Assembly (NCBI RefSeq): GCF_001677475.2
Contig: NZ_CP015229.1
Length of the DNA: 64,000 nucleotides
Direction: 5' to 3' (one strand)
Origin: Escherichia coli
Lineage (GTDB): Bacteria > Pseudomonadota > Gammaproteobacteria > Enterobacterales > Enterobacteriaceae
The position numbers were made by a program, and so were the translations under genes. Shown here piece after piece: positions 33,286 to 55,457 of this stretch. Below the pieces are notes generated by a model. That model saw nothing but the letters and a program-made list of their open reading frames with translations, made no database searches and was not told the DNA's origin. The first letter of the stretch is position 1, and every line of letters starts with the position of its first letter.

Positions 33286-33370
33286 AACCAATTAAATTCA
33301 ATGAATTAAAAAGTATGTTGGCCTGATACGTAGCGCAACAGGCAATTTTGCGTTTGGCATCAGTCTCAAA

Positions 33371-52718: not shown

Positions 52719-52826
52719 TACATTACTCCCTGATGTGATGCCCGGTCGCTCCGGCTATCGGGCCTGAACAAGCAAGAGTGGTTAGCCGGATAAGCAATGT
52801 TATCCGGCTATATTGCAGGAGCGATT

Positions 52827-54245
52827 ATGAAACAAGAAGTTATCCTGGTACTCGACTGTGGCGCGACCAATGTCAGGGCCATCGCGGTTAATCGGCAGGG
52901 AAAAATTGTTGCCCGCGCCTCAACGCCTAATGCCAGCGATATCGCGATGGAAAACAACACCTGGCACCAGTGGTCTTTAGACGCCATTTTGCAACGCTTT
53001 GCTGATTGCTGTCGGCAAATCAATAGTGAACTGACTGATTGCCACATCCGCGGTATCGCCGTCACCACCTTTGGTGTGGATGGCGCTCTGGTAGATAAGC
53101 AAGGCAATCTGCTCTATCCGATCATTAGCTGGAAATGTCCGCGAACAGCAGCGGTAATGGACAATATTGAACGGTTGATCTCCGCACAGCAGTTGCAGAC
53201 TATTTCTGGTGTCGGAGCCTTTAGTTTCAATACGTTATATAAATTGGTGTGGTTGAAAGAAAATTATCCACAACTGCTGGAACGCGCGCACGCCTGGCTC
53301 TTTATTTCGTCGCTGATTAACCACCGTTTAACCGGCGAATTCACTACTGATATCACGATGGCCGGAACCAGCCAGATGCTGGATATCCAGCAACGCGATT
53401 TCAGTCCGCAAATTTTACACGCCACCGGTATTCCACGCCGACTCTTCCCTCGTCTGGTGGAAGCGGGTGAACAGATTGGTACGTTACAGAACAGCGCCGC
53501 AGCAATGCTCGGCTTACCCGTTGGCATACCGGTGATTTCCGCAGGTCACGATACCCAGTTCGCCCTTTTTGGCGCTGGTGCCGAACAAAATGAACCCGTG
53601 CTCTCTTCCGGTACATGGGAAATTTTAATGGTCCGTAGCGCCCAGGTTGATACTTCGCTGTTAAGTCAGTACGCCGGTTCTACCTGCGAGCTGGATAGCC
53701 AGGCAGGGTTGTATAACCCAGGTATGCAATGGCTGGCATCCGGCGTGCTGGAATGGGTGAGAAAACTGTTCTGGACGGCTGAAACTCCCTGGCAAATATT
53801 GATTGAAGAAGCTCGCCTGATCGCGCCTGGCGCAGATGGAGTGAAAATGCAGTGTGATTTATTGTCGTGCCAGAACGCTGGCTGGCAAGGAGTGACGCTT
53901 AATACCACGCGGGGGCATTTCTATCGCGCGGCGCTGGAAGGGTTAACCACGCAATTACAGCGCAATCTACAGATGCTGGAAAAAATCGGGCACTTTAAAG
54001 CCTCTGAATTATTGTTAGTCGGCGGAGGAAGTCGCAACACATTGTGGAATCAGATTAAAGCCAATATGCTTGATATTCCGGTAAAAGTTCTCGACGATGC
54101 CGAAACGACCGTCGCAGGAGCTGCGCTGTTCGGTTGGTATGGCGTAGGGGAATTTAACAGCCCGGAAGAAGCCCGCGCGCAGATTCATTATCAGTACCGT
54201 TATTTCTACCCGCAAACTGAACCTGAATTTATAGAGGAAGTGTGA
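52827..54245 (+). CDS. fucK: L-fuculokinase (FGGY family)
   Basis: Frame shared with ORF-track entry 52797..54245; I place the start at ATG 52827 ([17 protein letters not shown]...) because AGGAG sits 5 nt upstream, whereas ATG 52797 has no RBS and lies in the loop of a 10-bp palindrome. The 52797 start remains possible. Confidence 0.9.
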
Positions 54246-54246
54246 A

Positions 54247-54660
54247 ATGCTGAAAACAATTTCGCCGTTAATTTCTCCCGAACTATTGAAAGTGCTGGCA
54301 GAGATGGGGCATGGAGATGAAATTATTTTTTCCGATGCTCACTTTCCCGCCCATTCGATGGGACCGCAGGTGATCCGCGCTGATGGCCTGTTGGTGAGCG
54401 ACTTGCTCCAGGCGATTATCCCGTTATTTGAGCTGGACAGTTATGCACCACCGCTGGTGATGATGGCGGCGGTAGAAGGTGACACTCTCGATCCTGAAGT
54501 AGAACGACGTTATCGTAATGCGCTTTCACTACAAGCCCCCTGTCCTGACATCATCCGCATCAATCGTTTTGCGTTTTATGAACGGGCGCAAAAAGCCTTT
54601 GCGATCGTTATCACAGGCGAACGAGCGAAGTACGGGAATATTCTTTTAAAAAAGGGGTAA
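54247..54660 (+). CDS. fucU: L-fucose mutarotase
   Basis: 137-aa [45 protein letters not shown]... ending ...ILLKKG. Confidence 0.9.
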
Positions 54661-54725
54661 CACCGTAATCTCATACCGGTACGCCCGCATGACGCGGGCG
54701 GTTATCGAATGATGGGGTGAAAAAT

Positions 54726-55457
54726 ATGAAAGCGGCACGCCAGCAAGCGATAGTCGACCTGCTGCTGAACCATACCAGCCTGACCACGGAAGCTCTCTCT
54801 GAACAGCTAAAGGTCAGTAAAGAAACCATTCGTCGCGATCTCAATGAATTACAGACGCAGGGTAAAATTCTGCGCAATCATGGGCGCGCTAAATATATCC
54901 ACCGTCAAAATCAAGACAGTGGCGATCCCTTTCACATCCGGCTGAAAAGCCATTATGCGCATAAAGCAGATATCGCGCGCGAGGCGCTCGCGTGGATTGA
55001 AGAAGGGATGGTAATAGCCTTAGACGCAAGTTCAACCTGCTGGTATCTGGCACGCCAGTTGCCTGACATCAACATCCAGGTCTTCACCAATAGCCATCCG
55101 ATTTGCCATGAACTCGGTAAACGCGAACGCATTCAACTGATCAGTTCCGGCGGCACACTTGAGCGCAAATATGGTTGTTACGTCAATCCCTCTCTGATTT
55201 CCCAGCTTAAATCGCTGGAAATCGATCTGTTTATTTTTTCTTGTGAAGGGATCGATAGCAGCGGCGCACTGTGGGACTCCAATGCGATCAACGCTGATTA
55301 CAAATCAATGCTATTAAAACGTGCCGCGCAATCGTTGTTATTGATTGATAAAAGTAAATTTAATCGTTCAGGGGAAGCCCGCATCGGGCATCTGGATGAG
55401 GTCACGCACATTATTTCTGATGAGCGCCAGGTTGCGGCTTCTTTGGTAACAGCCTGA
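54726..55457 (+). CDS. fucR: DeoR-family transcriptional activator of the fuc regulon
   Basis: 243-aa frame MKAARQQAIVDLLLNHTSLTTEALSEQLKVSKETIRRDLNEL...; ORF-track start 54717 is a GTG extension. Confidence 0.94.
   Translation: MKAARQQAIVDLLLNHTSLTTEALSEQLKVSKETIRRDLNELQTQGKILRNHGRAKYIHRQNQDSGDPFHIRLKSHYAHKADIAREALAWIEEGMVIALDASSTCWYLARQLPDINIQVFTNSHPICHELGKRERIQLISSGGTLERKYGCYVNPSLISQLKSLEIDLFIFSCEGIDSSGALWDSNAINADYKSMLLKRAAQSLLLIDKSKFNRSGEARIGHLDEVTHIISDERQVAASLVTA

Follow-up and report, generated by a model that had tools for sequence, protein, structure and literature searches.

The fucU gene in the window, the 64,000-nt stretch of Escherichia coli DNA analysed in this study, very probably carries a genuine, inherited 1-bp deletion (A7 to A6) near its 3' end, which on comparative grounds would represent an ordinary strain variant fixed in the clone. 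As the A6 run is common to independent assemblies of this E. coli clone, an inherited variant rather than an assembly error is indicated; thus, of the two explanations offered in the original prediction, strain polymorphism or sequencing/assembly error, the former is strongly favoured.

The fucU gene and its 3' tract

In the window, fucU has its place in the fuc operon, flanked by fucK and fucR, as judged from the open reading frames (ORFs) and from synteny with annotated genomes. The features relevant to the deletion are as follows.

52827-54245, + strand: fucK (L-fuculokinase, 472 aa), upstream neighbour, intact (ORF list)
54247-54660, + strand: fucU (L-fucose mutarotase) CDS, 137 codons plus TAA (ORF list)
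54648-54653, + strand: A6 run, site of the 1-bp deletion (alignment: A6 in IMT5155, A7 in CU42ET-1 and Nissle)
54648-54654, + strand: A_AAA_AAG heptamer, in phase with fucU (computed codon phase, TT-A AAA AAG)
54654-54657, + strand: G4 run adjoining the A run (tract typing)
54657-54668, + strand: remnant of the ancestral frame, now out of frame (GTA ACA CCG, i.e., Val138 Thr139 Pro140)
54658-54660, + strand: TAA stop that the deletion moves into frame (GGG GTA A to GGG TAA)
54666-54668, + strand: ancestral TAA stop (from the bases that are coding in A7 references)
54726-55457, + strand: fucR (fuc operon activator, 243 aa), downstream neighbour, intact (ORF list and annotation of homologous loci)

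The 3' codons of fucU read ATT CTT TTA AAA AAG GGG TAA, and both the sequence and the ORF list therefore bear out the predicted frame end of ILLKKG followed by TAA at 54658-54660. The stop had also been described as lying within an A6G4 tract; the tract is present, but the TAA comes immediately after it, a trivial difference. When one base is added to the tract, the frame ends in KKGVTP-TAA and encodes 140 aa, three residues more, just as had been proposed, and the FucU length of 140 aa given in the original prediction agrees with PDB 2WCV, the NCBIfam model and the proteins of Nissle 1917, CU42ET-1 and S40. In these three genomes, the 140-aa FucU is encoded by a 423-bp CDS (WP_000920840.1), and the 140 residues of 2WCV end in KKGVTP. 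The suspected homopolymer indel relative to the 140-aa reference was recovered in the alignment as A7 to A6: since the references read A7G4, the missing base is, by this alignment, an A and not a G. The window and the reference differ here directly by a single base, and chance is not at issue.

The frameshift at codon 138 meets a TAA at once, such that only Val-Thr-Pro is lost and no aberrant tail is added. The stop is thereby shifted 8 nt upstream, from 54666-54668 to 54658-54660, leaving 65 nt between the new fucU stop and the fucR start. Translation from 54654 yields GVTP followed by a stop, the remnant of the ancestral frame. A scan of positions 54400-54900 revealed no promoter or terminator consensus; thus, there is no obvious regulatory consequence of the moved stop, and an effect on fucR is unlikely.

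The fucU-fucR spacer was observed to contain a stable predicted stem-loop (54668-54718) with a core hairpin at 54682-54700 (CGCCCGC-AUGAC-GCGGGCG) within a longer helix. The 106-nt fold has a minimum free energy of -35.6 kcal/mol (z = -3.75 versus shuffled sequences), and as no T-run follows the stem-loop, it is not a canonical intrinsic terminator. Upstream, the fucK frame is open 5' to an ATG at 52797 (window 52797-52826), which would give a protein of 482 aa, while RefSeq places the start of fucK in homologous loci at the equivalent of 52827 (472 aa); the two versions differ in the choice of start codon and not in sequence.

Except for the last three residues, the protein encoded in the window is FucU by all of the sequence criteria checked. 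Over residues 1-137, it matches the 140-aa E. coli reference and the PDB chain 2WCV without a difference, and family-invariant residues are retained (e.g., His22, Tyr111, Tyr129-Gly-Asn131 and Gly137). The protein scored 299 bits against the NCBIfam equivalog NF011949 (cut-off 141), covering profile positions 1-137 of 140, and 126.8 bits against Pfam PF05025 (RbsD_FucU; cut-off 25), covering model positions 1-136 of 138. It stops at Gly137 and lacks the C-terminal KKGVTP end, which is typical of orthologues but is not a formal defining feature of the family.

Inherited deletion or sequencing error

To place the A6 run in its lineage, the exact FucK (ANO90609.1) and exact RlmM proteins of the window were used as markers, and the look-ups gave 25 and 24 contigs, respectively. 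The 137-aa FucU was found in 22 of the 25 exact-FucK contigs and in 18 of the 24 exact-RlmM contigs, counts which rest on the collapsing of similar gene neighbourhoods, with the DNA-level check covering the window, L015/L023 and L016. Contig L015 (GCA_043014985.2) carries A6 and matches the window with 100% identity over 9,419 nt; L016 (GCA_018682865.1), which also carries A6, differs by 1 SNP over 9.4 kb. The contigs with a 140-aa FucU from these look-ups were all at least 10 SNPs from the window: the A7 contigs L017, L018, L025 and L026 show 10-23 differences from it, with a SNP set in common, and the A7 contig L024 is 129 SNPs away. The confinement of A6 to one haplotype and its absence from the sister haplotypes are as expected of a derived, inherited deletion.

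The quality of the window sequence was assessed by comparison with S40, with which it shares 98.35% identity over 36 kb. Six 1-bp indels were found, and the one in fucU is the only coding one. The five others (window positions 33314, 37542, 43037, 62645 and 62935) are all intergenic, lying between barA and gudD, between gudP and yqcA, just after ppnN, between mltA and a tRNA gene, and in a tRNA spacer; three of them are in short homopolymers (37542, T5 vs T6; 62645, T3 vs T2; 62935, A4 vs A3). As these five indels are intergenic, the assembly of the window looks clean. An error-prone consensus would break genes as well, and the lack of any other coding indel in 36 kb thus argues that the base call is real.

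An alternative hypothesis is that the A is missing through a homopolymer sequencing or assembly error in this record, and that the organism truly carries A7 and a 140-aa FucU. Miscalls of A7 as A6 are a typical fault of 454, PacBio and Nanopore consensus data, and A6G4 is rare, being found in 4 of the 5,423 complete genomes typed. Moreover, four chromosome-scale GenBank assemblies with a 137-aa FucU, L004 (CP181272.1), L007 (CP121347.1), L010 (CP148063.1) and L011 (CP165543.1), are error-prone, with further coding 1-bp indels within 6.4 kb; L007 has split fucI and rlmM genes and a truncated fucR. These four look like uncorrected long-read consensus sequences. However, A6 was seen at the DNA level in two independent drafts sharing the haplotype of the window and is accompanied by approximately 18-22 contigs of the same neighbourhood type, A7 occurs only on distinguishable sister haplotypes, and the 36 kb compared contain no additional coding indel. 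The error hypothesis is thus largely refuted, and we consider it highly unlikely for this record. A statistic based on the longest contig per block, considered as a measure of long-read versus short-read support, was rejected because it depends on allele frequency.

The base call in the window is therefore regarded as trustworthy, and the appropriate annotation for fucU is that of an intact 137-aa CDS rather than a pseudogene or an error. Within the lineage of the window, the A6 allele serves as a clone marker.

Gene order in the window follows that of K-12-like genomes, with no IS elements observed. Its exact proteins present in GenBank are ANO90609.1 (FucK) and ANO90612.1. The closest complete RefSeq E. 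coli genomes, from 5,426 searched, share approximately 98.5% identity over positions 40000-64000 and 96.6-96.8% over positions 1-24000, which correspond to the cas3-cysJIH-ygc region. As no complete RefSeq genome closely matches the window, its lineage looks sparsely sampled among finished genomes.

Length variants of the tract in E. coli

The tract was typed with queries of 91-93 nt differing only in the tract, for which 99% identity is reachable by an exact match alone, across the 5,423 complete RefSeq E. coli genomes in which the locus is present. The following alleles were obtained.

A7G4: 5,341 genomes; 140 aa
A6G4: 4 genomes; 137 aa
A7G3: 3 genomes; same 137 aa, with one G lost
A8G4: 3 genomes; 155-156 aa, with the tail ...YRYARMTRAVIE (tail seen in P0020 and P0101)

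A single-frame A7 tract thus accounts for 98.5% of the typed complete genomes, and A7 is taken as the ancestral as well as the majority state, sister genera also having 140-aa orthologues. The four A6G4 genomes are those of APEC IMT5155, ETEC1734, ETEC1706 and Z1324SEC0014; their fucU neighbours are intact, and PGAP annotates fucU in all four as a normal 137-aa L-fucose mutarotase, WP_000920839.1. The 137-aa allele is therefore already known, being catalogued in RefSeq under this accession, and similar alleles are sporadic across E. coli. Reference FucU proteins ending in LLKKG had been named in the original prediction as evidence that would count against an indel; one such protein does exist in WP_000920839.1, but it represents a rare allele only.

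In a larger protein collection, the exact 137-aa sequence was found on at least 1,000 contigs. The index held 3,923 blocks with the 137-aa form versus 105,763 with the 140-aa form, figures that count blocks rather than genomes and indicate scale only, and part of the public 137-aa count is probably artefact. Among the GTDB species-representative genomes, no match to the exact 40-nt A6 version was found. The complete genomes H141-H143 and H149-H151 are those with the A7G3 and A8G4 variants of the tract (54648-54657), and A7G3 is also carried by L005. Outside Escherichia, the FucU orthologue P0061 of Mangrovibacter sp. SLW1 has 137 aa and ends in ...YGNILLKKG, which points to a comparable slip, or a comparable error, in the corresponding tract.

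Recurrence was examined by comparing the 2.7-kb fucK-fucR segment across all of the fetched loci. At least 11 haplotype groups, separated by 12-54 SNPs, carry A6G4, and one further group carries A7G3. In several cases, a near-identical A7 haplotype stands beside an A6 group (IMT5155/Nissle, L004/S40, L012/L024 and window/L018). The occurrence of A6G4 on many backgrounds, together with A7G3, identifies the A/G tract as a hot spot of slippage, if a modest one, at which the length varies by plus or minus 1. Some of the A6 occurrences are surely long-read artefacts, and others are in locally clean assemblies. As A6G4, A7G3 and A8G4 have all been observed, length variants of this tract are by themselves no sign of poor assembly; neither are they proof of common ancestry.

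Slipped-strand mispairing during replication in the 7-nt A run is the most likely cause of the deletion and would have led to the loss of one A. The A6 allele is regarded as fixed in the E. coli clone of the window, and many other E. coli backgrounds have undergone the same loss of an A or the loss of a G from the adjoining G4 run. Phase variation at a contingency locus was also considered for this tract and was rejected, as both allelic states give an essentially complete protein and there is no on/off switch.

Consequences for FucU and comparison with known systems

The truncated FucU probably retains most of its mutarotase activity, although the lost residues are conserved. The KKGVTP end is kept in approximately 115 of 134 cluster representatives, including those of Citrobacter, Salmonella, Enterobacter, Raoultella, Edwardsiella and Hafnia, and in a 30-sequence alignment V138, T139 and P140 are each at least 90% conserved. 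This conservation of VTP across Enterobacterales makes a mild functional cost of the 3-residue loss possible, as far as can be judged from sequence comparison. The solved homologues (mouse 2WCU, 4A34, 3MVK, Atu2016 2OB5 and B. subtilis RbsD 1OGC) extend further than the residue that aligns with Gly137; the four with displayed alignments have V or T at position 138. As VTP is nearly invariant and V or T is found at position 138 in solved homologues, full activity of FucU(1-137) is not to be assumed.

These observations raise the possibility that the deletion is real but that FucU is inactive, the allele being either a first step towards gene decay or a loss-of-function variant because folding or the decamer interface depends on the conserved C-terminal Val-Thr-Pro. 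The retention of KKGVTP in most cluster representatives, the extension of the Pfam model to residue 139, and the solved homologues that continue beyond the Gly137 equivalent, with the conserved V/T138, would all be in keeping with such a loss of function. On the other hand, just 3 of the 140 residues are lost and the invariant residues up to Gly137 are intact; none of fucA, fucP, fucI, fucK and fucR is shortened in the clone, and fucU itself carries no secondary mutation; the same truncation persists in several lineages; and the in-phase A_AAA_AAG would permit some full-length product. Inactivation is thus unlikely, and the available sequences give no sign of decay of the fuc operon. An AlphaFold2 model of FucU built from the 30-sequence alignment (mean pLDDT 46.8) was poor and was discarded, and a full-text paper search on FucU structure and the C-terminus returned nothing usable on residues 138-140. 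The biological weight of the deletion is small: a near-neutral 3-residue truncation in an accessory enzyme of fucose catabolism.

The heptamer brought into phase by the deletion deserves separate consideration. A_AAA_AAG is a classic -1 slippery sequence of E. coli, known from dnaX and IS911, and it is in phase in the A6 allele only. Because a -1 slip re-reads one base, it would compensate exactly for the deleted A, and the computed product of a slip at this site ends in KKGVTP-stop and is exactly the wild-type 140-aa FucU (P0001). The A6 fucU might therefore be partly decoded by -1 frameshifting, giving both the 137-aa and the 140-aa FucU and rendering the deletion leaky or silent. Apart from the exact phase of the heptamer, the identity of the slipped product to the wild type and the established slipperiness of the site, this hypothesis can draw on a GGGA at 54634-54637, the only upstream feature, which lies 10 nt upstream of the heptamer, at the spacing of the Shine-Dalgarno-like stimulator of dnaX; however, the GGGA is a weak match to the anti-Shine-Dalgarno sequence. 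Furthermore, no downstream stimulatory structure was predicted at 5-9 nt from the heptamer: the predicted helix starts at 54668, 13 nt after it, and the strong GC hairpin at 54677-54707 lies 22 nt after it and beyond both fucU stops. The heptamer and the two-product arrangement also show no evolutionary conservation, belonging to a derived allele of one clone, which makes them a recent accident rather than a conserved feature. We therefore consider such dual decoding exceedingly improbable; a -1 slip in A6 fucU would be expected to give at most a low basal amount of full-length product. A related proposal, that the A6 allele is self-suppressing, with a -1 slip giving a few percent of full-length FucU and perhaps explaining the tolerance and recurrence of the allele across lineages, is very improbable as well. 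The preferred explanation remains an inherited deletion yielding a slightly shortened FucU.

Compared with the dnaX-type sites of programmed -1 frameshifting, A6 fucU has the identical heptamer in the correct phase but lacks a properly spaced downstream stimulator and conservation, and its heptamer is best regarded as an accidental by-product of the deletion. Compared with the A7G3 alleles, the window has lost an A rather than a G from the same tract, yet the resulting protein is the same, while the A8G4 alleles, again altered at this tract, shift to the other frame and add a foreign tail of approximately 19 residues. The WP_000920839.1 of APEC IMT5155, ETEC1734, ETEC1706 and Z1324SEC0014 is the same protein as that of the window, encoded by an ordinary CDS with the same A6G4 tract; however, the flanks in these strains are 31-51 SNPs per 2.7 kb away from those of the window, and none of the strains belongs to its clone. 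Their different flanking haplotypes indicate that their deletions are either independent or errors. Finally, the FucU of the window and that of E. coli K-12 (140 aa; 2WCV; WP_000920840.1) are alike in residues 1-137, in their position in fucPIKUR and in the RbsD_FucU domain, and they differ in the A run, A6 instead of A7, and in Val138-Thr139-Pro140, which the window protein lacks.
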